From an uncultured Peptostreptococcaceae bacterium (GTDB taxonomy: Bacteria; Bacillota; Clostridia; Peptostreptococcales; Acidaminobacteraceae), in NCBI GenBank assembly GCA_964511875.1, contig CAZEHS010000004.1, positions 5,028-69,027 of the forward strand: a DNA stretch of 64,000 bases, given 5' to 3'. A program made the position numbers and the translations under genes. Below, one piece after another: positions 40,531-56,336 of this stretch (its first letter is position 1; each line of letters begins with the position of its first letter). The notes beneath the pieces are model-generated. The model was not told where the DNA came from. It made no database searches and was given only the letters and a program-made list of their open reading frames with translations.

Positions 40531-41619
40531 TCATACTATTTCATATTGAATTTTCTCTATCCGCAAATCACTTTCTTTTGTAAGGTCGATTGGAGTGTTA
40601 AGCAAGACCTTAGTGGTGTGATCGATAGGTATCACAATCGGCCGCATTGGGTCGCTCTCCTGTACGGTTGCCACTAATGCAGTTCTCTTATCACTGAGTG
40701 TCACAAGACAACCTTCCGGGTAAGGCATGATTTTTCTAATGAATAGATCTACCAATTTGGAATCCAGTTGTTTACCGCTCGCCGAAATCATGTGCTGCAA
40801 TGCTTCATTCGGCGATATAGCACGGCTATATGACCGGTCTGATGTTATGGCATCGTAGATGTCTGCAACTGCAACAATCCGGGTAAGTTGATGAATTTCA
40901 TGATTAACCAGATTCCTGGGATATCCGCTGCCATCCATTTTTTCATGGTGCTCTAAAACAATGATTTTCATAAAGGCAGTGGCAAAGGAGAAATCCTTGA
41001 AAATTTCGTATCCTTTCTTCGGATGTTCTTTTATTTTTATGAATTCCTGAATATCCAGTTTCCCATTTTTCATAAAGACATTTTCATTGATAAAGTTCAT
41101 GCCGATATCGTGAAATAATGCACCCAAGAAGACATCACGCTGGCGGTTTCGATCCAGGCCCGCATCAATTCCTAACAGGAGTGACAGGACGGCTACATTC
41201 AAAGAGTGAGAAACCGTATAACTTTCACGGATTTTAATGTCCGTAAAACTCAGGTATTGACGAGTTGTACGGATGATTTCATATTGTATATGTTCCGCTA
41301 ACTCCAGAATTCTATTTAGTGGCTTCAATACACTTTCATGGACATTATTCCCCGACTCATGACGCAATCGGATGATATCATACATATTCTTCAGTTCTCG
41401 GGTGATCTCTATCTTCAGATCGGTTGATATCGGAGGTGTTAACTGATTATGACTGTATCGGTCATTGACATACACCGAAAACACACCGGCATTTTTAAGT
41501 TGCGACACAATTCGATCCGATACCGATAAGCCTTTTTTTACAAGAATTCGGCCAAAGTGATCATAAACATCTTCCGCTAAATGTAGAGTAACGGCATATT
41601 CAATCGGAACGATTCGCAT
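40531..41619 (-). CDS. HD-GYP domain protein (putative c-di-GMP phosphodiesterase)
   Basis: ALFHDIGM (HD) and LEHHEKMDGSGYP (GYP) motifs. GGAGG RBS. Confidence 0.85.
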   Translation of the reverse strand: MRIVPIEYAVTLHLAEDVYDHFGRILVKKGLSVSDRIVSQLKNAGVFSVYVNDRYSHNQLTPPISTDLKIEITRELKNMYDIIRLRHESGNNVHESVLKPLNRILELAEHIQYEIIRTTRQYLSFTDIKIRESYTVSHSLNVAVLSLLLGIDAGLDRNRQRDVFLGALFHDIGMNFINENVFMKNGKLDIQEFIKIKEHPKKGYEIFKDFSFATAFMKIIVLEHHEKMDGSGYPRNLVNHEIHQLTRIVAVADIYDAITSDRSYSRAISPNEALQHMISASGKQLDSKLVDLFIRKIMPYPEGCLVTLSDKRTALVATVQESDPMRPIVIPIDHTTKVLLNTPIDLTKESDLRIEKIQYEIV

Positions 41620-41639: not shown

Positions 41640-41733
41640 ATGAAGTGAACCTTAGTTGAACGGATCCAGGGCCTCTACAGTTCTCCACTCCCGCTTACGA
41701 GGCGGGAGTGGAGAACTGTTAGGCATCGGATAA
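41640..41733 (+). repeat. Structured repeat family, copy B (94 nt; lacks hairpin 1)
   Basis: ATGAAGTGAACCTT|AGTTGAACGGATCCAGGGCC... Hairpin 2 is a perfect 17-bp stem, CAGTTCTCCACTCCCGC/GCGGGAGTGGAGAACTG. Confidence 0.9.
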
Positions 41734-42463: not shown

Positions 42464-44485
42464 ATGTCAAGAAAACGAACGGAAAAAATTGCAGCATTTA
42501 TCATTCTGCTCATTCTTATGTCAGCAGTTGTGTATTCAATTGCTATCTTGAATAGGGATTTTGCAAGTGATAATCAAAATTTGAAAGTCAATCTGAGTGA
42601 TGAAGAGCGTATTTGGTTGTCCTCACAGGAGAGTCTGCTATACTCAGCCGATCGGAATGCCCCGCCCTTGCGATTTGTTGATGATGCAGATGGTCAGTAT
42701 AAAGGTTTTGTTGTCGACTATATCAATTCTCTCTCATTAGAATTAGGCACAAATATCGAAATGCACCCCATGGTCTGGGAGGATGCTCTAAAGTCATTAT
42801 CTGAAGGCAATTCCGATCTCTGCGATATGTTTAAGAGTGAAGAACGTTCCAAATATTACAATTTCTCAGAGCCAATCTATACCCTTCGGGGAGTACTGGC
42901 TGTTAAGAAAGCAAACACGGAAATCAAGAATATCAAGGATCTGGATGGAAAGGTCATCGCAACTCAAAAGGGTGACTACGTTAATGAGTTTCTTAGGACT
43001 AAGTATCCGGGCATTAAGATCCGAGAAGTAGAAGATGTCAGTGAGGCCATCACACTGCTCCAATCAGGGCTTGCCGACGCTATTGCTGGCGATGAACCGG
43101 TGGTCCTGTTCCATCTTGAGAAGCAGAATTCGGAGCAAGCCATAAGGATAGTTGAACGCCCCTTATATGAAAATGAAGTTGTTCTTGCGATGCCAAAAGG
43201 CAAGCCACAACTAGTCAGTATCGTGAACAAAGGGATTGAGGTTCTCAAAGCTAAGAAGCAACTGGAAATAATCCAGCAGAAGTGGTTCGGAATCTCCACA
43301 CCGATTGTTCAGACAGGTGAAGTTGAAAGGATCATTCGGATAGCCCTGACGGGTGCATTCATTCTTCTGTGCGGATTGTCAGCAATGGGGTTCTGGACAA
43401 CGACATTGAAAAGACAGGTAGAACTGCGGACAAAGGAAATTGAAAACAACAAGGATGAACTGGAGACCGTTTTTGACAGCATGAATGAATTTTTGGTCGT
43501 GGTGAATGAAAAGAAGGAAATCCTTAACGTCAACAAAGCGCTGTGCGAGGCAGTGAATAGTGATCGGGAAGATCTGATTGGAACAAACTGCGAGGGTGTC
43601 TTAAGCAAGTACTGCAAAAACTGTTCATTATGTCCGGTGGATCAAACTGCCGAGACAACTGAATATGCTGGCCATGAAGAGACCGTGGGGAACGAGGTCT
43701 ACGCAATTCGCTCATACCCTCTCAAAACAGCGCAGGGTATGATGAAGAACGCATTGATCATCATACAGAATGTTACCAGTGATAAGATTTCTAAGAATCA
43801 GATGCTGCAGGCCAACAAAATGGTTGCGGTCGGTCAGCTGGCAGCGGGTGTGGCCCATGAAATCCGAAATCCACTGGGAATCATCCGGAGTCACAGCTAC
43901 ATCTTGAGGTCGATATATGAGAATGACGAGCGTATCGTCAAGTCGCTGAACTATATTGATTCCTCGGTAGAGCGGGCAGGCAGCATCATTGACAACCTCC
44001 TGAATTTCTCCAGGATTTCAGAGAAAACATCGGATGTGATTCAGGTCAAAAGGTTTGTCCTCGATGTGATTGAACTGGAGAAAAAGCACCTTCAAAATAG
44101 AAATATTGAATGCGAAGTGCATTGCGCCGATGATCTGATCTGCAAAGTCAGTCCGGAATCATTGAAACATATTTTCATCAACCTGATTTCTAATGCAGCA
44201 GACGCTATCGGACAATCCGGACGGATCAGCATCGAAATGATGACGAAGAATGATCGCCTACACCTTGTTCTCAGCGATACCGGAATGGGAATCCCGGCAG
44301 AGAATCTTGAGAGAATATTCAATCCGTTCTTCACGACAAAGGAACCGGGTGTTGGAACTGGATTAGGCCTTTATATCGTATACAGTGAGGTCAAGAAAAT
44401 GAATGGTGAGATTCATGCAGAGAGTGTATTAGGGGAAGGGACGACATTTACTCTGGACATCCCGCAGTATGGAGGCATCGTATGA
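42464..44485 (+). CDS. Sensor histidine kinase: periplasmic SBP_bac_3 domain, TM, Cys-rich PAS, HisKA, HATPase
   Basis: Amino-acid-binding-protein-like segment [21 protein letters not shown]-box [12 protein letters not shown]-boxes DTGMGI and GTGLGL. Confidence 0.85.
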
Positions 44486-45849
44486 AGGATTCATTAAAAA
44501 TTCTCATTGTTGACGATGAGCAGGATCACCGTGAAACCTTCCGCATGATCCTTGAAGCGAAGGGGTACCAGGTTGGTGAAGCGGCAAGCGGGAAAGAGGC
44601 GCTGGATCTTCTGGACAAGGAATATTTCCCAATTGTATTGTCAGACATCATGATGGTGGGAATGAGCGGACTCGAGCTTTTGGATGAGGTGATGAAGCTC
44701 TATAAAGGTCGGATTGAAATGATCATGGTAACCGGTTACGGCAGTGTAGAAACGGCGGTAAAGGCATTGAAAAATGGGGCATTCGGATACTTTATCAAAA
44801 CACGGAGTCCGGATGAACTGCTGATAGAAATTGAAAAGGCGCATAAGTTCCTGAATTTACAGGCTCAGAACGCTTTTTTGAAGCAGAATCAAGGCAGTAG
44901 CAGATTCCTGCTGCAGAGCAAGAATAGAAAAATGCAGGACATCCTTGATGTGGCACAAACGGTTGCGAAAAGCAAATCGAATGTGTTGCTTTTGGGCGAA
45001 TCCGGTGTCGGGAAAGAGGTTATTGCCCAAATGATTCATAAAAGCAGCGAGCGGGCTGATATGCCTTTTGTTGCGATCAATTGTCAGTTCTTTTCTGAAA
45101 GTCTTATGGAGTCAGAGCTCTTTGGCCATGAAAAGGGTGCATTCACCGGAGCCATGGGAAAAAGAATCGGACGATTTGAGGAGGCCAGCGGCGGGACTGT
45201 TTTTCTGGATGAGATCGGCGAAATGGCTTTGAGCACACAGGTTAAGCTTCTCAGGGTTCTCGAAAACAGAAAAATTGAACGAATCGGATCAAACAAGGAA
45301 ATCTCGGTGGACTTCAGATTGATCAGCGCCACAAATAAAAATCTGAAACAGGCAATCCGAGAGAGTGCTTTTAGAGAAGACCTTAACTACCGAATCAATA
45401 CGATTACGTTGGAAATTCCTCCTCTAAGGGATCGGTCAGAGGATATTCCGGATATGATTGATTTCTTCATGAGCCTATACAGTGCAGAGTTAAAAAAGAA
45501 CCTCATCGGAATGGATGAATCCACAAGAAAGTATCTTTTGAACTATGATTACCCCGGGAATATCAGAGAGCTGAAGAACATGATCGAGCGTATGGCTGTG
45601 TTGACCTCAGACGGGTATTTGAGAATGGAAAACAACAGCGAGCGTACGAAACCGATTTTGGCAGCCAGACAGACGGGAGATCGGGGTTCTTACAAAGATG
45701 CCAAACGGGAGTTTGAAACAAGCTACATCCGCAATGTCCTTGAACAAACAGAAAACAACATTACAAAAGCAGCTGAAATAATGGAGATCAGCCGAAGGCA
45801 GCTCTTTAATAAATTGGTTGAACTCAATCTGCGACCCAATATTGAATAA
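44482..45849 (+). CDS. Sigma-54-dependent response regulator (NtrC family)
   Basis: REC domain (LIVDDE, SDIMM). AAA+ module [14 protein letters not shown] loop, [16 protein letters not shown]-terminal Fis-type HTH. Confidence 0.9.
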
Positions 45850-45852
45850 TGA

Positions 45853-45864
45853 TTCCACGTGGAA
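45853..45864. promoter_or_regulatory. Putative enhancer (UAS) palindrome TTCCACGTGGAA
   Basis: Perfect 12-nt palindrome 64 nt upstream of the sigma-54 -24 element. A near-identical TTCCAGGTGGAA lies at 49508-49519. Partial TTCCAGGT at 45871-45878. Confidence 0.5.
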
Positions 45865-45928
45865 AAATAGTTCCAGGTACAAAACAGACCAACAGTTCAT
45901 TTCACTGCATTACAGGGAAATGAATTGT

Positions 45929-45944
45929 TGGCATTTTTTTTGCA
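45929..45944 (+). promoter_or_regulatory. Sigma-54 promoter (-24/-12) of ortAB
   Basis: TGGCAT-N5-TTGCA with GG/GC spaced 12 nt, 55 nt upstream of the ortA GTG. Confidence 0.8.
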
Positions 45945-45999: not shown

Positions 46000-46317
46000 G
46001 TGAAAGCAGCCAAAAATGAATGGGTCGAAATCGAGTGTATGATTCTTAAACCGTCAGAGCGGGCACCACAAGTTCCCGAAGATACCAAACTGACACCCTT
46101 GATGATGTGGGTGAAAGGATTTCTAATGAGCGAGGCTTCAAACCTGGGTGAAACAGTCACGATCAAGACCCTCACTGGCAGGACGCAAGAAGGCAAGCTT
46201 GTGAGCATCCAACCCCGACACGTGCACGACTATGGCAAACCGATCACGGAGTTATTTGAAATCGGTGTTGAGATCAGAAATGAACTGAATCAAGATGGAG
46301 GACCTGTTAATGAATAA
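46000..46317 (+). CDS. ortA: 2-amino-4-ketopentanoate thiolase alpha subunit
   Basis: About 100-aa protein with SERAPQVPEDTK...MWVKGFL...TLTGR...DYGKP, as recalled for OrtA. AAGGAGG RBS with GTG start. Followed by the beta subunit. Confidence 0.7.
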   Translation: MKAAKNEWVEIECMILKPSERAPQVPEDTKLTPLMMWVKGFLMSEASNLGETVTIKTLTGRTQEGKLVSIQPRHVHDYGKPITELFEIGVEIRNELNQDGGPVNE

Positions 46318-47716
46318 TTCTTACGAAGCAGTCATGGCAAGAAAAAATGAAATAATGCGAAAAGCGGTCGGAATTGATTACTCGGAATTTGAATATGGGG
46401 AACTAGGTTTTGATTATGAAAAAATGATGCGGCAGGTAGCCTACTCCATCGATGAAATGCAGAAGATCCAGGGCGAGACGAAGGTTGGTAACACGCCTCT
46501 TTTTGAATTGAAGAACATCAACCGCATGATCAAGAAATACGCGCCTCATGGAAAGGGAGCACGGATATTCGTTAAAGATGAAGCCGCCAACGCTTCAGGT
46601 TCATTCAAAGCACGCCGGGCCTCCATAGCGGTCTATCACGCACAGAAGCTGGGGTACAAGGGCGTTATTGCAGCAACCAGCGGGAATTACGGGGCAGCTG
46701 TTGCATCACAGGCAGCCCAGCGGGGGATGAAGTGCATCATCGTCCAGGAAGTCTTCGATTCATCCAAAACGGGGCAACCGGAAATCCTTGAAAAGGCCAG
46801 AAAGTGTGAAGCTTACGGTGCCGAAGTGGTCCAGCTGACCGTTGGACCAGAGCTGTTCTATGTGTTCCTCAGACTGCTTGAAGACACAGGGTATTTCAAT
46901 GCATCACTCTACACGCCATTTGGAATCGCAGGCGTTGAAACGTTAGGTTATGAATTGGCCAACCAGTTCATGGAGAGAGAAGGGGTGTACCCGGATGTTG
47001 TTGTTGCGACCCACGCAGGCGGTGGGAACCTTACGGGTACGGCAAGGGGGCTGATTAAGGCTGGTGCGACCGACACAAAGGTTGTGGGTGCTTCTGTGGA
47101 CCTGTCTGGGCTTCATATGGCATCAGATAAGGACTTCAATAAGAAATCGTTTACAACCGGTCATACGGGGTTTGGTGTCCCATTTGCATCATGGCCGGAT
47201 CGTGCGGATGTGCCTAGGAATGCCGCCCGTGTACTCAGGTACATGGACCGGTACGTCACGGTTACACAAGGTGATGTATTTTATGTGACAGAATTGTTGG
47301 CGCAATTGGAAGGAATCGAACGAGGGCCTGCAGGCAACACATCTCTTGCAGCTGCAATCGCCATTGCCAAAGAAATGAATGACGACCAAACCATCGTAGT
47401 TCAGGAAACGGAATATACCGGAGCTGGTAAGCACCCCATGCCCCAGCTGACCTTTGCTAAGGATAATGGGATTGTGTTAAAACGAGGCAATCCTGAGCTG
47501 AGCATACCTGGAGTGAATATCATTCTGCCGGAACACTTCAGTCAGATCCAGGTGAACGATATCGATGTTCTGAAGCTGAAGAAATCTTATCTGAAGCATG
47601 CGATGGCGTCCAAATCCCTTACCAAAATTGAAGACAATGATCTGTCGTTCCTGGCGGAGGATACCCGGTTAAATAAGGCTGAAGTCGGCAACATACTAAA
47701 AGAACTCGGATACTAA
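46310..47716 (+). CDS. ortB: 2-amino-4-ketopentanoate thiolase beta subunit (PLP, fold type II)
   Basis: GNTPL...KDEAANASGSFKARRA PLP-lysine region and TSGNYGAA. About 470 aa. GGAGGA RBS before the ATG at 46310. Confidence 0.7.
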   Translation: MNNSYEAVMARKNEIMRKAVGIDYSEFEYGELGFDYEKMMRQVAYSIDEMQKIQGETKVGNTPLFELKNINRMIKKYAPHGKGARIFVKDEAANASGSFKARRASIAVYHAQKLGYKGVIAATSGNYGAAVASQAAQRGMKCIIVQEVFDSSKTGQPEILEKARKCEAYGAEVVQLTVGPELFYVFLRLLEDTGYFNASLYTPFGIAGVETLGYELANQFMEREGVYPDVVVATHAGGGNLTGTARGLIKAGATDTKVVGASVDLSGLHMASDKDFNKKSFTTGHTGFGVPFASWPDRADVPRNAARVLRYMDRYVTVTQGDVFYVTELLAQLEGIERGPAGNTSLAAAIAIAKEMNDDQTIVVQETEYTGAGKHPMPQLTFAKDNGIVLKRGNPELSIPGVNIILPEHFSQIQVNDIDVLKLKKSYLKHAMASKSLTKIEDNDLSFLAEDTRLNKAEVGNILKELGY

Positions 47717-47784: not shown

Positions 47785-49227
47785 TTAAGATACTTGGTCC
47801 TTTTTAGCGTTAACATGATCCATATTATCATTCCGGCCGATTCCCAGGAAGATACTGGCCAGCATAACCGCCATCATTCCATAAGCGTAGATAACGAATG
47901 GCGTAACTTCCATTGCAGCCAGCGGGTGAATAGTGTCTTTAGCAAAGCTGAGCGTGTAAATGATTGCCGGTGTCCAGGGCAGTGAATACACAAGCGTACA
48001 AGACATTGAATCAAGCAAGTTTGCAGTTCGATAAGGACTTATTCCATGTTTCAAAGACAGTGGTTTTGCAAAAGATGCACCAACTGCGAGGATTGCAGGT
48101 GCGTTCAAACCCATCAATGAGGAAAGTGCAACGATCATCCCTGTGATTGAAAGCTCGGCGCCGATAGGGGTTTTCGCAACTTTGCCCAAAGCATTCAGCA
48201 ATTTGAGATCTCCTTGTCCAGCACGCATGATTGCGATAGACCCGAAGAGCAGGATGGCCAGTATGGAGACTTGAAGCATGCTGTTGATGCCTGAATAGAT
48301 GACCCCGTCAACCGTACGATCCAGGCCAACCCCAGAGACTCGAAGGAGTGCTTTTTTAGTAACCTCTTGAGTAGGATCAATTTGGATTAAATCCATCAGA
48401 CCGGCCATGACAGCTGTGCCCCCTGCTAAGACAGACCCGATTGTCGTTGCGATTACAATGTCACCGGACTTGATAGCCACCCAAATGGTAAGTGCTACAG
48501 GAATCAGCATGAGAAGTGTAGCTGAATTGTACTGAGCTGCAGCCGCTTCCGTAATGGTCCCTGTATATCCGGAACCAATGATCACAATGCCGATAATCGT
48601 GATTATTCCAGCTGCCAGTGCGTATTTGAGCCGAGATCTTACAACGCCTGGAACATCCACCCCCTGAGAGGTCGCAGAGCAAATGGTGGTATCAGAGACA
48701 GGCGCCAGATTGTCGCCGAATGCGCCTCCCGATACAATCGCTCCTGCCAACAAACCAGGGTGTGCTCCTAGAGCAAGCCCTGCAGGATAAAGAACGCCCA
48801 TCCCTGCTGCGATGGTGCCAAATCCGGTTCCTGAAGCCGTAGCGAATATGGCGGATGCAACAAAGGAAATGATAATGAACATCGTACCACCGACGCCGAT
48901 TGAAGATGCTACTCCGGCAATCCCACCAGCGAGTCCGGAATCACGAAGGATTCTGGAAAAAACACCGGCGAAAATCCAGCAAACGACAGGGATGATTGCC
49001 TCCTTGCTGGCCATTCCGCTGATAATCGTATCGCTGAATAATTGCTTGTCCTTGGCGAAAAAGAAAGAAACGATCAGTGCCATGAATGCCGGAATCCAAA
49101 GTGCGCCATCTGAAATCGAACCAAAAAGAAATGTAGTCAAAATAATGAGAGCCAGGAATACCACAAATGGGATAAACGAAACCCATTCCCCACCGTAAAA
49201 CTCGAGCTTTTTCTTTTCTGTTGTCAT
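47785..49227 (-). CDS. NhaC-family Na+/H+ antiporter-like transporter (possibly an amino-acid carrier)
   Basis: GAFGDNLAPVSDTTI motif, multi-TM, 480 aa. GAGGAGGA RBS. Confidence 0.65.
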   Translation of the reverse strand: MTTEKKKLEFYGGEWVSFIPFVVFLALIILTTFLFGSISDGALWIPAFMALIVSFFFAKDKQLFSDTIISGMASKEAIIPVVCWIFAGVFSRILRDSGLAGGIAGVASSIGVGGTMFIIISFVASAIFATASGTGFGTIAAGMGVLYPAGLALGAHPGLLAGAIVSGGAFGDNLAPVSDTTICSATSQGVDVPGVVRSRLKYALAAGIITIIGIVIIGSGYTGTITEAAAAQYNSATLLMLIPVALTIWVAIKSGDIVIATTIGSVLAGGTAVMAGLMDLIQIDPTQEVTKKALLRVSGVGLDRTVDGVIYSGINSMLQVSILAILLFGSIAIMRAGQGDLKLLNALGKVAKTPIGAELSITGMIVALSSLMGLNAPAILAVGASFAKPLSLKHGISPYRTANLLDSMSCTLVYSLPWTPAIIYTLSFAKDTIHPLAAMEVTPFVIYAYGMMAVMLASIFLGIGRNDNMDHVNAKKDQVS

Positions 49228-49282
49228 AAAGAATCCTCCTCTTAAATTACCTAAAGCGAATTTAGGTGTTGCATATAACTAC

Positions 49283-49298
49283 TGCAACTTATATGCCA
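49283..49298 (-). promoter_or_regulatory. Sigma-54 promoter of the NhaC-like gene
   Basis: The minus strand reads TGGCAT-ATAAG-TTGCA, the same hexamer/pentamer as the ortA promoter, about 57 nt upstream of the ATG. Confidence 0.75.
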
Positions 49299-49322
49299 AA
49301 TGAGGATGAACATGAAGTGGCT

Positions 49323-49451
49323 ATGAAGCGATCCTTGGTTCAGGTGGAATTTCTACTCCATCTGAACCTTAGTAGAGCGGATCCAGGGCCTCTACAGTTC
49401 TCTACTCCCGCTTTAGAAGCGGGAGTCTTAGAACTGTTAGGCATCGGATAA
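49323..49451 (+). repeat. Structured repeat family, copy C (129 nt)
   Basis: ATGAAGCGATCC...CTGTTAGGCATCGGATAA. Hairpin 1 is GGTTCAGGTGGAAT/ACTCCATCTGAACC. Confidence 0.9.
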
Positions 49452-49507
49452 TTGAGCATTTAAAACAAAAGAAGGTGATGAATTTACGGAAGCAGTATGA
49501 AATAAAT

Positions 49508-49519
49508 TTCCAGGTGGAA
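49508..49519. promoter_or_regulatory. Putative enhancer palindrome TTCCAGGTGGAA
   Basis: Matches 45853-45864 at 11 of 12 positions, with similar A-rich flanks. Confidence 0.5.
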
Positions 49520-49535
49520 GAAAAATACTCAGTGT

Positions 49536-49823
49536 GTGCCACCATTAATCCGTTGTGTCAGTATTATAGAGTTCTTTTCAAAGCATTGTACTTTGATAGC
49601 AACGATGACCACATCAGAAACTGAATGCTCTTTTTGGTTTGATTCTCATCCCGCGCGCCTTATAAAGGAAGCATATCCACACCATAAATGTATAGACATT
49701 ATCACTGCCGAGCGAGGTAAGCAATTTGATCCCGTAATTGTGGATGCGTTTATCAAGGTTGAGAAGCAATTTGAAGAGGTTTTATTTTGGCAAAACCTCT
49801 GTGATCAGTACAATGTTGGTTAA
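49536..49823 (+). pseudogene. Possible extreme C-terminal remnant of an HD-GYP-type protein
   Basis: Only KEAYPHHKCIDIITAERGKQFDPVIVDAFIKVEKQFEEV resembles the conserved tail (G.qFDP.vv.aF) of HD-GYP proteins. Confidence 0.35.
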
Positions 49824-49953
49824 TAGGGTGTTCAGCGAAGACCTTCTGGTGGTGTGTGAAATCTTTGAGGTGGTGTACTATACTTGATTGCATCGAAACA
49901 CGGATGGGTATGAAGTCTCCATCAAGGGACAACTGATGAGATGGAGGTGGCAT

Positions 49954-50385
49954 ATGGCGGAACTTAAGACCAAGCAGCACGATGGAGATGTGATGGCGTT
50001 TATCGAGGGATTTGCTGAAAGTGATCAGCGACGGCTAGATAGCTATGCACTTATTCAGCTTATGCAGGATTTTACGGGCTTCCCACCTAAAATGTGGGGA
50101 CCTTCGATGATAGGCTTTGGCAGTTATCACTATAAATCGGATCGAAGTAAACAGGAAGGGGATTGGCCACTTGTCGGCTTCTCCCCCAGGAAGGCAGCAA
50201 TATCACTCTATGTGTATACAGGACTGCCCGAGCACGAACAGTTGCTGAAGGCACTTGGTAAATACACAGTGGGAAAGGCCTGTGTCTACATTAAAAAATT
50301 GTCGGATATCGATCAGGAAGCACTGAAGCGACTGATGGGTGCCACCATTGAATATTTACAAACCAGATACAGCTTGAAACAATAA
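49954..50385 (+). CDS. DUF1801 (YdhG-like) domain protein
   Basis: GGAGGTGG RBS before the ATG at 49954. The family call comes from memory of the MWGPSMIGFGSYHY...AISLYV pattern. Confidence 0.45.
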   Translation: MAELKTKQHDGDVMAFIEGFAESDQRRLDSYALIQLMQDFTGFPPKMWGPSMIGFGSYHYKSDRSKQEGDWPLVGFSPRKAAISLYVYTGLPEHEQLLKALGKYTVGKACVYIKKLSDIDQEALKRLMGATIEYLQTRYSLKQ

Positions 50386-50422
50386 TTATGGTCAGCTTCC
50401 TCAAGACCTTGTACACCACGAT

Positions 50423-50552
50423 TTATCCGATGCCTAACAGTTCTAAGACTCCCGCTTCTAAAGCGGGAGTAGAGAACTGTAGAGGCCCTGGATCCGCTCT
50501 ACTAAGCTTCAGATGGAGTTGAAACTCCACCTGAAGCCAAGGATCGCTTCAT
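50423..50552 (-). repeat. Structured repeat family, copy D (130 nt, inverted)
   Basis: Its reverse complement reads ATGAAGCGATCCTTGGCTTCAGGTGGAGTTTCAACTCCATCTGAAGC...GTTAGGCATCGGATAA. Confidence 0.9.
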
Positions 50553-50891
50553 CTTGATTCTGACATGTCGGCCTGTATTTGAGTTTTAATTGGGGATCGG
50601 GCTTTCAAGGAGCTAACTTCTACAAGGATTAAGATCTGTAGGACGTCTGGCTCTTTTTTTATTGTCACAAATAAGAAACGCAGGCATATCCAAAAAGCCG
50701 GTCCTCTGATAATTGTTATAGCCTACTATTACTTTACTCCCTAAAGTCAATTTTACTTTGCTATTGATATATGTTTTGAAGAATTTTCTGAATTCATGAT
50801 TCTTATCATTGCCAAAGGTCAAGAAGTTTTGACGAATGCATGATTATGCGTTACCATGAAGTCATATTTTAACGGAAGGTCTGGTGATAAA

Positions 50892-52667
50892 ATGAAGATT
50901 GGTTTTCGTGCAAAAGTGCTTCTATCAATCTCAGCGATCTCCATTTTGTCATCGGTCATCATTTCTGCGGTTTATTTCAACCGTTCTGCACAGATGGTAG
51001 AGCAGAACTACATCCGTTCTTTGTGGAACACGCTTTCTGTTTCTATGGAAACATTTGAAGGAACGGCGCAGGACTCCTATAATGTCGCCGTGCGATTGAG
51101 CAACGATAAGGTCCTGATCGACATGATCACCCAATATGCCGAGCATAAAGGCGGTGTGAATCAGGCGCTGGACATTAATGCCTATCTCAAACAGTTTCAG
51201 CCGGACGGCGGCATGATCGATTCAATTTATATCTATATGCCTGAACGAAAACAAGTCATCACTTCGATAGAATATCACGCATTGCAGGAAATATTTCTGC
51301 CGGAGAATTATCCGTGGTTTCAACTGAATGAAAATGGGTTGGGCGGCACAGGGCTTAGCCCTGCCGTCATTGTAGACCGTATAAGCCGTGCACCTAAATA
51401 TGTCATTACTTATTCGCGCGATATCTATAACCCGGAGGGGACCCAACGCATTGCTACGCTGGCTGTGAATTTGGATGAACGGCAGCTGTCCTATCAGCTA
51501 CTCAATAACGAGCGGGTGGGTGAAAACCGATATTATCTGGTAGACTCCAGCGGGATAATAGCATCAGGGGTAAGCGTTTCACAGTTAGGTAAGAATCTGA
51601 TCAGTCAGCTTCAATTGGCACCCTCAGGCAATCAAAGCTGGGAGGAACGGACCCAAACCATCGATGTAATCGATGATCTGCTCGTTGCATCCGTGCGTTC
51701 ATCCATGACAGGGTATCGCATCGTGTGTGTGGCTAAACGGTCTGAACTGGTGAACAACCTGCAACAACAACAGGGGTTTGTAATCACGTTACTTATTTTG
51801 ACATTGCTTGTCATGCTGATGTTGGCATCCATGATGTCGAAATGGATGTATAAGCCGGTTAAACTATTGAAGGATACTATGGAAAAGGTCAGTAACGGAG
51901 ACCTTGCGGCAAGAACGCCGGTGACCGGCAACGACGAAATAGCCATATTAGGGAAAGGATTCAATGAAACCATTGCACGGATTGAAAACCTAATCGGAGA
52001 GCTTGTCAGTGAGCGCATACACAAGAAGGAAGCCGAATTGGAAGCGTTGCAGTATCAGATTACACCGCACTTTATGTATAATACTCTCAATTCCATCAAG
52101 TATGCCGCCGTGCTCCAAGGTGCTGAACGTTTAAGCGAGCAGTTGGGAGCGTTCATAGAACTGCTGCAGGCCAGCATAAACCGCAGAGGGGCTTTTCTCA
52201 CCGTAAATGAAGAACTGAGAATGGTCGAAAACTATGTTAAGCTTCAGCGGTTTCGCTATATGAGCAGCTTCGAGGTCCTTTACGATGTACAGGATGAAGT
52301 CAGGGAATTATATGTACCAAGACTCTTGATTCAGCCCTTGCTGGAGAATGCCATCCTGCATGGCGGCAATTTGGAAGGCACCAATAGTCAGATTGGAATA
52401 TCGGCAGCCTTGGAAGGCGGGCAATTGATATTCTCCATCTTCGACAATGGGAACGGAATGTCTGAAGAACAGATACAGGAACTGATGAGGATCGAACCTT
52501 TGAAAAAAGGACGTTTCAGCGGTATTGGTGTTGCCAATATACAGGAACGGCTCAGACTGTATTATGGGGAACGGGCTTCACTGGATTATTCCAGTGGTCA
52601 GGGGGCAGGAACCTGTGCCCGTATTTGTATGCCGGCCAGCTCTGATCCAGATGAATTTGCGATATAG
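50892..52667 (+). CDS. YesM/LytS-type sensor histidine kinase (HAMP + His_kinase + HATPase)
   Basis: ALQYQITPHFMYNTLNSI H-region of PF06580-type kinases, with two TM segments. Start may be 50856 or 50892. Confidence 0.8.
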   Translation: MKIGFRAKVLLSISAISILSSVIISAVYFNRSAQMVEQNYIRSLWNTLSVSMETFEGTAQDSYNVAVRLSNDKVLIDMITQYAEHKGGVNQALDINAYLKQFQPDGGMIDSIYIYMPERKQVITSIEYHALQEIFLPENYPWFQLNENGLGGTGLSPAVIVDRISRAPKYVITYSRDIYNPEGTQRIATLAVNLDERQLSYQLLNNERVGENRYYLVDSSGIIASGVSVSQLGKNLISQLQLAPSGNQSWEERTQTIDVIDDLLVASVRSSMTGYRIVCVAKRSELVNNLQQQQGFVITLLILTLLVMLMLASMMSKWMYKPVKLLKDTMEKVSNGDLAARTPVTGNDEIAILGKGFNETIARIENLIGELVSERIHKKEAELEALQYQITPHFMYNTLNSIKYAAVLQGAERLSEQLGAFIELLQASINRRGAFLTVNEELRMVENYVKLQRFRYMSSFEVLYDVQDEVRELYVPRLLIQPLLENAILHGGNLEGTNSQIGISAALEGGQLIFSIFDNGNGMSEEQIQELMRIEPLKKGRFSGIGVANIQERLRLYYGERASLDYSSGQGAGTCARICMPASSDPDEFAI

Positions 52668-52675
52668 GTGATATC

Positions 52676-53635
52676 ATGAAAAAACATTGGGTGCTTTGCA
52701 TAATGATCTGTTTTATCGTGTGTGGTTGCAGCCCTGTCACGGATAGCTCCGTGCAGCCGCTTCAGAACCAGCACACAATCGGTATCCTGTTAAAAGCGAT
52801 GAACAGCCAGCATTGGCGTGATGTGCAGTCCGGCATTCAGGATGCCGCCCGTGAAGCCGGTGTAGCAACCATAGTATTGTATCCTGAAAATGAAACCAGT
52901 GTTCGTCAGCAGGAGGCTATGTTCAAAGATATGTTGAAATCCAAACCCGATGCAATCATATGGGCTCCGTGCGATTCGACACAATGCAGGGAACTGGTGG
53001 AACTGGCGGAGCGGGAAAATGTCAAAGTCTATGCTCTGGATACCCGTCCCGAAGACATCGTGCTTCCATTCATTGGGGCAGATAATCAGAATATCGGTAA
53101 ACTGGCCGCTGAACGCATCATTCAACTAACCGGTGGGACAGGGAAGGTTGCCATAATATCCGGCAGTATCATGCAGTCTTCCCATACGGAAAGAATCATG
53201 GGTTTCCAAAATACATTGAAGGGTACGGAGCTGAATCTTGTCTCAATCGAGAATGCAGATTCCGATTATCGACTTTCCATGGAAAAAATGAAAAAGCTCA
53301 TGAATGCTTATCCTGATCTGGCAGGTGTGTTCTGCACCAGTGCGGTCATGGGGCTGGGGGCAGTTGAACAGAGTCGTGCCACCTATGACAGGCCGCTCAG
53401 CATTGTGGCGGTAGATACCCAGGATGATGCCCTTACTGCTATACAGAACGGCACTCTGCACGGGCTCATAACCCAGAGCGGTTATGAAGCGGGATACACG
53501 GCGATACAAGTAGTGGAGAAAGGACTGAATGGGTTCAAGGTACCGATGAATACCTATATCGGGAGTGAGCTTGTCACACGGAATAACGTGATTGATTATC
53601 AGAAAAGGTCTCAATCACAGGGGGATTTACAATGA
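52676..53635 (+). CDS. Periplasmic sugar-binding lipoprotein associated with the two-component system
   Basis: Lipobox VCGCS. Ribose-binding-protein fold. Sandwiched between the kinase and regulator genes. Confidence 0.75.
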   Translation: MKKHWVLCIMICFIVCGCSPVTDSSVQPLQNQHTIGILLKAMNSQHWRDVQSGIQDAAREAGVATIVLYPENETSVRQQEAMFKDMLKSKPDAIIWAPCDSTQCRELVELAERENVKVYALDTRPEDIVLPFIGADNQNIGKLAAERIIQLTGGTGKVAIISGSIMQSSHTERIMGFQNTLKGTELNLVSIENADSDYRLSMEKMKKLMNAYPDLAGVFCTSAVMGLGAVEQSRATYDRPLSIVAVDTQDDALTAIQNGTLHGLITQSGYEAGYTAIQVVEKGLNGFKVPMNTYIGSELVTRNNVIDYQKRSQSQGDLQ

Positions 53636-55143
53636 TTAAGGTTCTTATTGTTGACGATGATTTTCTTGTGAGAATGTTCCTTAAGCAGCTCACGAATTGG
53701 ACTCAGGCGGGATATGAAATTGTGGGCGACGCCCGCAACGGTGCGGAAGCTCTGGTACTGTTCAAACAGCATCGGCCGGAGCTGATCATTACGGATTTGT
53801 GCATGCCCGGCATGAGCGGGCTTGAGCTGATCCGGCAGGTGAAATCTGAAGAGCCGTCCACGAAGGTTGTTGTTCTCAGCTGCCACGATGAATTCGAATT
53901 CGTACGCGAAGCGATGCAGTTGGGTGCCGATGATTATGTGCTAAAGAACATTCTGGATGAAAAGGAACTGCTCAGACAATTGGATGCCATTCGTGTAAAA
54001 ATAGAACAAACCACGGAAAAGGCATATAAGGAGAAGGAACTGCAAAGACTGGCACGTATGGGAACAGATATGCTTCGCATGGAACTGGTGGAACAGCTGA
54101 GGTCAGGGGAATTGACCCATGGCGGACAGCAAAAACTCATGAAGGATGCAGGACTAAAAGGAGAATACCCGGTCTGTGCTGTGCTGATGGTAACTGGGAC
54201 AGCCATGAGGGGTAACTCTTTGCAGGAAGTATGTCAACAGTATTGCCGCACGAAGGCAGCAGAAGCAGTTGAATGGACTTCCGGCAATTGCTGCATATTT
54301 GCGGATGTCAGTGCATACATTACACGTGACCGGCAGCAAGAATATGTGCGTAATTTTTCGCAGGGTCTTATGAACTGCGTTCATGAGTATCTCAATATCG
54401 ATCCCGATGTGGGTGTAAGCAATGTGCAATCCGGGGACGGCAGATTGGCAACGGCAGTTTTACAGGCACATGCCGCACTTCAGTGGTGTTTTTATTCGCC
54501 CGGAGTCCATGTTTATGACCCGACTGCCGTTATGAATACCCAGTGGCCCCAATCGGCAGCGCGTTTCCTCAATACGTTTGCACAGGCTGTTGAAGGATGC
54601 AGAGGAGAAGATATCCTGACCGGGGGATACCTGATATTGGAAGCGTTCCAGAGCGAACATACTGCTCCGGAAGCTATCGGAAGATGGTTCACAAGACTGG
54701 AGATGGAAGGCAAATTCCAGGCGAGCCGGAAGATTCCTGTGAATCTTGCAGCATGTAGAATACGGTTCAAAGAGTATGCTGAAAACGTGCAGCGATCCAA
54801 CGGACTAAAGGAACAGACCGGAGGAAACCGGGCCATTGAAACTGCTCTCGAATTCATCCGCCTACACTATTCGGAGCCGATTTCCCTTACACATGTAGCG
54901 GGTGCGGCACATCTGAATCCCGCATATCTTTCCCATCTTTTCAAGCTGGAGACCGGCGTGAATTTCAGCGAATATCTTCTGCGCTGCCGGATAGGCAAGG
55001 CGAAGGAACTGATTCTCAGTTCGGATAAGCCGTTGAACCAGTTGGCTGCACAGGCAGGCTTCTTCGATTATCGTAATTTCTGCAAGCTTTTCAAAAGAGA
55101 GACCGGCTTACGTCCTGCAGAATTCCGGAATCGAAAGATCTGA
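53632..55143 (+). CDS. YesN-type response regulator (REC + AraC HTH)
   Basis: VLIVDDD...DLCMPGMSG receiver. C-terminal AraC HTH LSHLFKLETGVNFSEYLLRCRIGKAKELI. ATGA overlap with the previous gene. Confidence 0.85.
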   Translation: MIKVLIVDDDFLVRMFLKQLTNWTQAGYEIVGDARNGAEALVLFKQHRPELIITDLCMPGMSGLELIRQVKSEEPSTKVVVLSCHDEFEFVREAMQLGADDYVLKNILDEKELLRQLDAIRVKIEQTTEKAYKEKELQRLARMGTDMLRMELVEQLRSGELTHGGQQKLMKDAGLKGEYPVCAVLMVTGTAMRGNSLQEVCQQYCRTKAAEAVEWTSGNCCIFADVSAYITRDRQQEYVRNFSQGLMNCVHEYLNIDPDVGVSNVQSGDGRLATAVLQAHAALQWCFYSPGVHVYDPTAVMNTQWPQSAARFLNTFAQAVEGCRGEDILTGGYLILEAFQSEHTAPEAIGRWFTRLEMEGKFQASRKIPVNLAACRIRFKEYAENVQRSNGLKEQTGGNRAIETALEFIRLHYSEPISLTHVAGAAHLNPAYLSHLFKLETGVNFSEYLLRCRIGKAKELILSSDKPLNQLAAQAGFFDYRNFCKLFKRETGLRPAEFRNRKI

Positions 55144-55328
55144 CACTTTTCTAAAAAAAGAACACCCTTTTGTCCACGTGAGTTGATGTGGTCAAGGGAG
55201 TGTTCTTTTTTTGCGTGAAATATCCAAAATTTTGCGAACATTTCGAAAGTACTGATCACTGCCGATGAAAACGATATCCTGATATCCTTAGTTTAAAGAC
55301 AGGGCAGCCTGAAACAGGAGGAAACATA

Positions 55329-56336
55329 ATGAAAGTTGGAATTATCGGCGCCGGGCGTATTGGAAAGGTCCATGCCCAAAATATCTCAATGTTCGTGCCG
55401 GAAATGAAAATCAAGACCATTGCAGATCCTTACATGAATGAGGAAACAAGAGGATTTGCACAACGCTTCGGTATTGAAAACGCTGTCAATGATGCGGAAG
55501 AGATCCTGAATGATCCTGAAATTGAAGCCGTACTGATCTGTTCATCGACAGATACTCATTCAAAGTACATCATTGAAGCTGCAAAAGCCGGGAAGCATAT
55601 TTTCTGCGAAAAGCCGATCGACTACGATCTGGCGAAAGTCCACGAAGCCATCAATGCAGCAAAGGATGCCGGTGTAAAGCTTCAGATAGGCTTCTGCCGA
55701 CGGTTTGACCACAACCACAGGGCTGTCTATGATATGGTGCAGTCCGGCAAAGTGGGTAAACCCAACATCATCAAAATAAGCTCCAGAGATCCGGAGCCTC
55801 CCCCAGTGGAATATGTAAAAGTATCTGGCGGCATCTTTTACGATATGATGATCCATGATTTCGACATGGCCCGTTTTCTTGCTGGAAGCGAAGTGATTGA
55901 AGTGCATGCTGTCGGTTCAGTACTGGTGGATCCGGCCATCGGAGAAGCCGGCGATGTGGATACGGCTGTGGTGACCTTGAAATTCGAATCCGGCGCCATT
56001 GGCATAATCGACAACAGTCGTAAGGCAGTATACGGCTACGATCAACGGGTAGAAGTTTTCGGATCGGAAGGATGTGCAGTCAACGGAAATGATATTCCCA
56101 ACACGGCGATGCTTTGGAATGGGGAAGGTTCAACAGGAGGAACGGCATATAAAGTCATGTGGGACCGCTATACCGGTGCTTTTGTGGATGAATTGAAAGC
56201 TTTTGCAGAGGCAGTTGCGAAGGATCAGGAGCCTCCGGTAACCGGAATGGACGGACTGTATCCCGTGCTGATGGCGGCTGCAGCTACCAAATCCATTAAA
56301 GAAGGTAGACCGGTCAAAATTTCGGAGGTTGAATGA
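55329..56336 (+). CDS. Gfo/Idh/MocA-family oxidoreductase, inositol 2-dehydrogenase-like
   Basis: MKVGIIGAGRIGKVHA Rossmann motif and FCEKP motif. Confidence 0.75.
   Translation: MKVGIIGAGRIGKVHAQNISMFVPEMKIKTIADPYMNEETRGFAQRFGIENAVNDAEEILNDPEIEAVLICSSTDTHSKYIIEAAKAGKHIFCEKPIDYDLAKVHEAINAAKDAGVKLQIGFCRRFDHNHRAVYDMVQSGKVGKPNIIKISSRDPEPPPVEYVKVSGGIFYDMMIHDFDMARFLAGSEVIEVHAVGSVLVDPAIGEAGDVDTAVVTLKFESGAIGIIDNSRKAVYGYDQRVEVFGSEGCAVNGNDIPNTAMLWNGEGSTGGTAYKVMWDRYTGAFVDELKAFAEAVAKDQEPPVTGMDGLYPVLMAAAATKSIKEGRPVKISEVE

Follow-up and report, generated by a model that had tools for sequence, protein, structure and literature searches.

We identified a 129-nt non-coding interspersed repeat with two hairpin domains (copy C, 49323-49451, plus strand) in the control region of a gene for an NhaC-family transporter. 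The gene lies in a 64,000-nt stretch, hereafter the window, of contig CAZEHS010000004.1 from an uncultured Peptostreptococcaceae bacterium (genome G000, assembly GCA_964511875.1; 85% complete, 167 contigs). The repeat separates a predicted sigma-54 promoter from a palindromic enhancer (upstream activating sequence, UAS), and we consider it very probable that a small, highly structured and non-autonomous repeat has recently inserted, as copy C, into a loosely constrained enhancer-promoter spacer. Insertions of small repeats into permissive spacers of control regions are an already known kind of event; this one is clean evidence of the recent mobility of the repeat family.

The sequence TGGCAT-N5-TTGCA occurs exactly twice in the window, against 0.10 matches expected: before ortA on the plus strand (TGGCATTTTTTTTGCA, 45929-45944) and before the NhaC-like gene on the minus strand (TGGCATATAAGTTGCA, 49283-49298), with the ortA start and the nhaC ATG each 55 nt further on. 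Both are predicted sigma-54 (-24/-12) promoters, and upstream of nhaC the -24 GG and -12 GC elements stand at canonical spacing (TGGCAC-N5-TTGCW). The palindromes TTCCACGTGGAA (45853-45864) and TTCCAGGTGGAA (49508-49519) are the sole matches in the window at one mismatch or fewer (0.14 expected), and their consensus TTCCAnnTGGAA is confined there to the ortA and nhaC loci. Between palindrome and promoter lie 64 nt at ortA (45865-45928) and 209 nt at nhaC (49299-49507); subtracting the 129 nt of the repeat leaves 80 nt. An earlier sequence-only reading of this DNA had argued from these distances that the repeat is a secondary insertion and therefore mobile, and its promoter coordinates, palindromes, gaps and repeat length all proved exact. 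It had also described the two palindromes as near-identical. Both are located as it said, but TTCCAGGTGGAA is imperfect (its reverse complement is TTCCACCTGGAA) and the two dodecamers are mere cores of a composite inverted repeat of ~40 bp. In the ortA enhancer (45839-45878) the outer half TGGAAAAATAGTTCCAGG matches the family consensus TGGAAaaatATTTCatagc. In the nhaC enhancer (49494-49533), which is homologous in alignment to the UAS of G001, a genome of the same genus, and of Anaerosolibacter (L074), the promoter-proximal outer half (TATGAAATAAAT) is good and the distal half degenerate, as it also is in G001.

Taken by themselves the distances would have argued only weakly for an insertion, since gaps of anything between 62 and 202 nt occur naturally at related loci. 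Upstream of nhaC in G001, however, TTGCCAGGTGGAA stands 96 nt upstream of TGGCATGCCTCTTGCT with no repeat in between, and the repeat is also missing from L074 and from a metagenome contig that encodes an 83% identical NhaC (L149). In a multiple alignment these three share a single gap that falls exactly over the repeat, the boundaries of which we had set by genome-wide comparison of 28 full copies, with homology on either side. We also searched for the outcome that would speak against an insertion, namely the same 129 nt at this position in relatives, and BLAST of the repeat against 164 related nhaC loci gave no match in any of them. Thirteen paralogs within G000 match copy C at 96-99% identity (99.2% for the copy at C25:18146, 96-98% for the other 12), while the surrounding spacer without the repeat is only 52% identical to G001; copy C is therefore in all likelihood much younger than the species split. 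The gap before insertion was 80-85 nt, a range rather than a figure because the four to five terminal bases (AT[G/A]AA) may be target-derived, and the present 209 nt exceeds the gaps of all 38 comparable loci.

The enhancer and promoter on either side of copy C recur in relatives together with a set of neighbouring genes. Four of these lie on the plus strand of the window in the order kinase, regulator, ortA, ortB, convergent with the NhaC-family gene. A Pfam scan identified a sensor histidine kinase (42464-44485; SBP_bac_3 - PAS - HisKA - HATPase_c), the gene of which adjoins the regulator gene in many related loci, and an NtrC-type response regulator and sigma-54 activator (44482-45849; Response_reg - Sigma54_activat - HTH_8, Sigma54_activat E=2.8e-68), the presumed binder of the palindrome. 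They are followed by ortA (46000-46317; OrtA E=1.2e-36) and ortB (46295-47716; PALP E=1.3e-52), which encode the two subunits of 2-amino-4-ketopentanoate thiolase. The NhaC-family gene (47785-49227, minus strand; Na_H_antiporter) is intact and stop-free, and its 480-aa product shares 84% of residues 1-470 with the ortholog of G001. We compared 160 related nhaC loci from genomes and metagenomes, corresponding to 130 non-redundant upstream regions of Clostridia; promoters were scored as TGGCA-N7-TGC at most 200 nt from the start codon, and palindromes as TTCCAnnTGGAA at 9 or more of 10 positions. A sigma-54-type promoter precedes nhaC in 65 of the 130 regions, and in 38 of those 65 TTCCAnnTGGAA is found further upstream, at gaps of 62-202 nt (median 95.5; all but two outliers, 173 and 202, within 62-156). 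Promoter and start codon are 34-68 nt apart in relatives, bar a few loci (maximum 140), and similar promoters stand before ortA in 24 of 55 related loci. The 33 distinct sites align into a composite palindrome of ~40 bp, gCtatGAAATaaatTTCCAnnTGGAAaaatATTTCatagc, which in loci L069-L228 stands upstream of sigma-54 promoters of nhaC and ortA.

The sigma-54 promoter goes with the regulator gene: it precedes nhaC at 45 of the 55 loci that have the regulator gene nearby, versus 17 of the 71 that do not. The kinase / regulator / ortAB / nhaC cluster recurs across Clostridia in several gene orders, and its hosts include Geosporobacter, Anaerosolibacter, Fusibacter, Acidaminobacter, Tissierella, Anaerovorax and Anaerotignum. 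The shared enhancer of the sequence-only reading is thereby upheld, given that TTCCAnnTGGAA stands upstream of sigma-54 promoters at 38 non-redundant nhaC loci and is associated with a neighbouring regulator gene. From this comparison we strongly infer that the palindrome is the site bound by the adjacent NtrC-type regulator. The regulator, paired with an amino-acid-type sensor kinase, would then, from its place on the enhancer, reach the promoters of both ortAB and nhaC through a DNA loop and activate the sigma-54 RNA polymerase there. These data define a conserved kinase / NtrC-type regulator / ortAB / nhaC regulon in many Clostridia, with a ~40-bp enhancer unlike the published OrdR site.

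Copy C belongs to a numerous family. In G000 we found at least 28 full copies of 127-132 nt, with sharp boundaries and unrelated flanks, and ~15 partial copies; the true copy number is higher, because many of the partial copies are cut by contig ends. Overall the element measures 127-142 nt and falls into two subfamilies, which start with ATGAAGCGATCC... and ATGAAGTGAACC..., and there is a short form that precisely lacks hairpin 1 (for example copy B, 41640-41733). All 28 copies begin with ATGAA at the 5' end. At the 3' end they read CGGAT(A/G)A, with an A next in 24 of 27 copies; most finish in ATAAA, five in ATGAA and four to five otherwise. The motifs at the two ends do not match copy by copy in G000. 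No terminal inverted repeats were found, the ends ATGAAGCGATCC... and ...GGCATCGGATAA being non-complementary, and in the predicted folds the first six and the last two bases are unpaired and no pair links the two ends. The elements are highly structured. Copy C is predicted to fold into two independent hairpin domains at -33.6 kcal/mol (z = -7.7), and RNAalifold, run on 19 diverse copies from six genomes, returned 37 pairs in two domains, 13 of them with double compensatory changes. Copy C differs from its nearest paralog (C25:18146-18274) at position 49349 only, where a G->A change has created the enhancer half-site TGGAA from TGGAG, at 39 nt upstream from the -24 element, and has disrupted the top pair of hairpin 1. 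A further copy in the window, copy D (50423-50552, minus strand), is the inverted partner of copy C at a distance of 971 nt, with 113-nt arms that are 97% complementary.

Copy C can be read from ATG to TAA as exactly 43 codons. We rejected this coding reading: the 42-codon frame is interrupted by TGA at its third codon in the other subfamily and by indels of 1-2 nt, never a multiple of 3, between copies, and the stems covary. Copies are clear of predicted open reading frames (ORFs) bar one, where the overlapped ORF call may be spurious, and they show no orientation bias. Rfam gave no match at gathering score in the window save an unrelated c-di-GMP-I riboswitch, and nothing meaningful at E up to 10 over 49250-49560. 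Neither a sigma-70-like promoter on the nhaC strand nor an intrinsic terminator was found in 49150-49900.

A covariance-model search recovered the family in 22 of 151 genomes of Peptostreptococcales; these represent 17 of 83 genera and 7 of 12 families and typically hold anything from several to more than 20 copies each. The host family also includes Fusibacter sp. 3D3 and an Acidaminobacter metagenome-assembled genome (MAG). Diverged copies are present in G001 and G002. The copies of G020 and of genera g25 and g50 run ATAAA-core-CGGATAAA, with ATAAA at both ends, and tandem copies have ATAA in common. In two congeners, G026 and G037, one site with ~90% identical flanks is filled in the former (L265) and element-free in the latter (L284). 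The filled allele reads ATT[ATAAACA]-core-[ATAAACA]T and the element-free allele ATT-ATAAACA-T-ATAAACA-T, that is, two heptamers with a single T between them, a pattern that either a tandem target or the footprint of an excision could explain. Elsewhere (L269 versus L286), G037 retains only the 3' 35 nt of the element, and three more sites (L255/L256, L260, L272) are filled in both genomes. Taken together, the sharp-ended full copies, the patchy multi-copy distribution and the one filled and empty pair agree with the mobility that had been proposed for the repeat.

Two candidates for what mobilises the repeat were rejected: an IS200/IS605 or REP-associated tyrosine transposase (RAYT) partner, on account of the Y1 transposase searches reported below, and a longer autonomous parent element, given that every partial copy is either truncated by a contig end, a short form or a decayed remnant, and that no transposase gene is flanked by one. 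No carriage of the repeat by plasmids or phages was found, and blastn against 72,556 plasmids gave no similarity. We infer that the repeat spreads by means of an enzyme acting in trans, possibly through either a bcr1-like, site-specific-recombination-like mechanism or a single-strand one at AT-rich sites of the ATAAA/TTTAT type.

Several observations weigh against a recent insertion of a mobile element between a working enhancer and its promoter. The closest comparator, G001, is too diverged in the spacer (52%) to give a base-exact insertion point, and copy C ends in ATGAA on one side and ATAAT on the other, hence no clean target-site duplication. In look-ups for the same species, an identical OrtA was found only on two 1-kb Logan contigs (SRR13723396 and SRR13723397), which stop short of the site, and exact-protein look-ups for NhaC, DUF1801 and the HD-GYP remnant returned nothing. 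The Y1 transposase domain (Y1_Tnp, PF01797) had no match in the 85%-complete G000, and none of the Y1 genes of G001, G002 and G020 is flanked by the repeat. On the regulatory side, the distal half of the nhaC enhancer is degenerate, and binding of the palindrome by the regulator is put forward by comparison between loci and not by demonstration, because the published OrdR site GAGCAAAATATTTTGCTC is unlike TTCCAnnTGGAA, which was not found in the text of that paper (PMC6615313).

NtrC-type activators act by DNA looping over ~70 bp to more than 1 kb, with face-of-helix effects mainly at short range, and therefore the promoter should remain activatable. The 209-nt gap is within the usual working range of such activators. 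Given this looping over hundreds of bases and the intact nhaC frame, the promoter would still work after the insertion, even if output and helical phasing may have shifted. Moreover, no part of the region is less constrained in relatives than the spacer, whether in length or in sequence, which is why an insertion can survive there. Gaps in relatives cluster near 64, 74-75, 84-86, 95-96 and 105-111 nt, which hints at a periodicity of 10.5-11.7 nt. At 10.5 nt the Rayleigh R is 0.38-0.49 with a preferred residue of ~1; gaps of 64 and 84-85 nt then fall on the preferred phase, whereas one of 80 nt misses it by half a turn and one of 209 nt by ~2 nt. This periodicity is only suggestive, because the loci are kin and the period was scanned. 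The locus offers a natural spacing mutant: one cell carries the same type of enhancer at 64 nt (ortA) and at 209 nt (nhaC), and relatives preserve the empty state at ~80-100 nt. The distance and phase dependence of an activator in a Gram-positive lacking integration host factor (IHF) thereby becomes directly testable.

Food for debate is whether the repeat is merely tolerated at this site. It might have been exapted as an architectural part of nhaC control and hence be under selection, its cruciform-prone or bent DNA aiding looping in an IHF-less Firmicute, or the change at 49349 adding a TGGAA activator half-site. The element would then be kept because it re-tunes the sigma-54 enhancer geometry, from ~84-85 to 209 nt and near the preferred helical face, by means of bendable or cruciform-prone DNA and an extra half-site. 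The nhaC frame is intact, as such a role would have it, the only base that differs from the nearest paralog is the one that creates the half-site, and at ~10.5 nt a gap of 84-85 nt would be in phase and 209 nt within ~2 nt of it. However, a single base change singled out post hoc is weak evidence, and the periodicity derives from related, non-independent loci whose best period is 11-11.7 nt and not 10.5. Elsewhere, members of the family occupy intergenic positions of unrelated context, with no bias in orientation, and no other nhaC locus has recruited the element. We therefore regard both selection on the repeat and retention for its effect on geometry as unlikely; if they were true, copy C would show how a mobile repeat can be domesticated in nature to serve as a spacer module between enhancer and promoter. 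Alternatively, the repeat could be ancestral at this site and have been lost in relatives, in which case the 209-nt spacing would be the old state. The family does predate the genus, as the diverged copies of G001 and G002 indicate, and old copies can stay at one site across species (L255/L256 of G026 and G037). Those old orthologous copies, though, are ~85% identical (estimated by eye) between flanks of 91.7%, and copy C has no comparable divergence from its paralogs, being 99% identical to the nearest one while its flanks are 52% identical to G001. With the repeat absent from 164 of 164 related loci in many genera as well, we hold an ancestral presence to be very improbable.

The remaining alternatives concern the enhancer and the promoter rather than the repeat. 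Recombination between copies C and D could have flipped or mobilised the 971-nt segment that they bracket (49452-50422) and so have brought the palindrome beside nhaC by accident, without its being the native enhancer. The two copies are inverted and 97% complementary, and synteny with G001 is lost further upstream. Yet ~70 nt to the right of copy C (the enhancer core and GGAAATTTATTTCATAC) align with the enhancer region of G001, L149 and L074, and ~95 nt to its left align with their promoter region; because each flank aligns with the regulatory region of relatives, both are native and contiguous. The same type of enhancer also stands before nhaC at 38 loci. We rejected the inversion as the source of the palindrome, and see hardly any room for it. 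Finally, the promoter and palindrome matches could be due to chance and nhaC not be sigma-54 dependent here. If one mismatch is allowed, the sigma-54 pattern is indeed not rarer in the window than chance predicts (3 found, 2.29 expected), but the exact matches are far in excess of expectation and each is followed at 55 nt by a start codon, the promoter and the enhancer have been conserved in dozens of genera, and the genes for the activator and for sigma-54 are present. Of all the explanations considered this is the one to which we give the least credence. The reading of copy C as a recent arrival in a native enhancer-promoter spacer accounts best for the alignment gap, the identity to paralogs and the absence from relatives: the repeat is missing from the spacer in G001, L149 and all the related nhaC loci searched, in keeping with the secondary insertion first proposed.

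Other copies and neighbouring genes provided further observations. Beyond the enhancer, no similarity at protein level was seen between 49536-56000 and the nhaC-upstream DNA of G001 or L149. Synteny breaks just past the enhancer; this segment holds copy D, a DUF1801 gene and a Pfam-less ORF (49536-49823) that by eye resembles the tail of an HD-GYP gene. At six copies in G000 (C25:18146, C15:7219, C3:61655, C2:86017, C28:10778 and C11:44297) the TGA within the element's ATGA serves as the stop codon of a co-oriented upstream gene, and no run-in of upstream genes was seen in the other two frames. This suggests that the element inserts at the ends of genes, or into them, and that selection favours an immediate stop. 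A fold-back derivative at C130:4185-4260, nested in a decayed copy of the other subfamily, consists of hairpin 1 between the 5' terminal 14 nt and their exact reverse complement (ATGAAGCGATCCTT ... AAGGATCGCTTCAT). On the minus strand, the c-di-GMP-I riboswitch (41870-41784, 78 bits) is followed by a terminator (~41758-41733), the short-form copy B (41733-41640) and then the ribosome-binding site and ATG (41619) of a 362-aa gene (40531-41619), and copy B therefore lies within a riboswitch-controlled leader. The sigma-54 genes of G000 are two genes with Sigma54_DBD (C54:980-1456 and C81:357-833), both full-length, with frames of 486 and 490 aa in one MAG; the pair could reflect a true duplication or the 4% contamination.

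Compared with described systems, the ends of the repeat recall palindrome-associated transposable elements (PATEs), which derive from IS200/IS605, and the repetitive extragenic palindromes (REPs) served by RAYTs. Both have subterminal hairpins and neither terminal inverted repeats nor a target duplication, REPs being much shorter. Similarly, the other strand of our repeat is preceded by T(T/C)AT and ends in TCAT, and its tandem copies share a tetranucleotide. Unlike in these systems, no Y1 transposase was found in the 85%-complete G000, and in G001, G002 and G020 none is flanked by the repeat. As in Correia/NEMIS, ERIC and RUP-type miniature inverted-repeat transposable elements (MITEs), a small non-autonomous repeat has landed in an intergenic control region. 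Such MITEs alter promoter geometry or add sites, and Correia elements carry promoters and IHF sites (PMC3184786). The copy C family is multi-copy, non-coding and sharp-edged with variable flanks, like a classical MITE, but it lacks the terminal inverted repeats of that class, a defined duplication (TA for Correia) is not evident, and no parent insertion sequence sharing its ends was found.

On the regulatory side, the closest precedent is the OrdR regulon from a survey of sigma-54 regulons in Clostridiales (ord-ortBA-oraSEF-orr-nhaC), with ortBA and nhaC as predicted sigma-54 targets, a promoter consensus TTGGCATNNNNNTTGCT and enhancers mostly 100-250 bp upstream (Nie et al. 2019, PMC6615313). 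Here, too, we predict that sigma-54 and an upstream enhancer control ortAB and nhaC, and the consensus TTGGCATNNNNNTTGCT applies. Unlike that regulon, ours comprises ortAB and nhaC only in the window, no ord, ora or orr genes having been identified among the genes scanned around them. The activator also sets itself apart, since only ~10% of the activators in that survey combine a receiver domain with an adjacent partner kinase (PMC6615313), and this one has both.

For the repeat itself, the group A bcr repeat bcr1 of the Bacillus cereus group is the closest described element, in functional resemblance and not in membership, and the comparison is by description. bcr1 is a non-coding element of ~130-155 nt, found in tens of copies, that has TTTAT at either end and lacks terminal inverted repeats, and compensatory changes preserve its two independent stem-loops; its genomic locations differ from one relative to another, and no enzyme is known to transpose it (PMC3184786, PMC6542083). 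The copy C family likewise has two hairpins kept by compensatory changes, a length of 127-142 nt and, in most copies of G000, ATAAA (TTTAT on the other strand) at its 3' end. In contrast to bcr1, its 5' motif is fixed as ATGAA in G000 and the ends do not match copy by copy, so that a simple 5-bp duplication is not shown. bcr1 has been reported on B. cereus-group plasmids, whereas the plasmids we searched gave no blastn match to the copy C family. While bcr1 is described as restricted to the B. cereus group, the copy C family inhabits the Peptostreptococcales (Clostridia). We regard it as a broad, apparently undescribed family of structured, bcr1-like repeats of that order.

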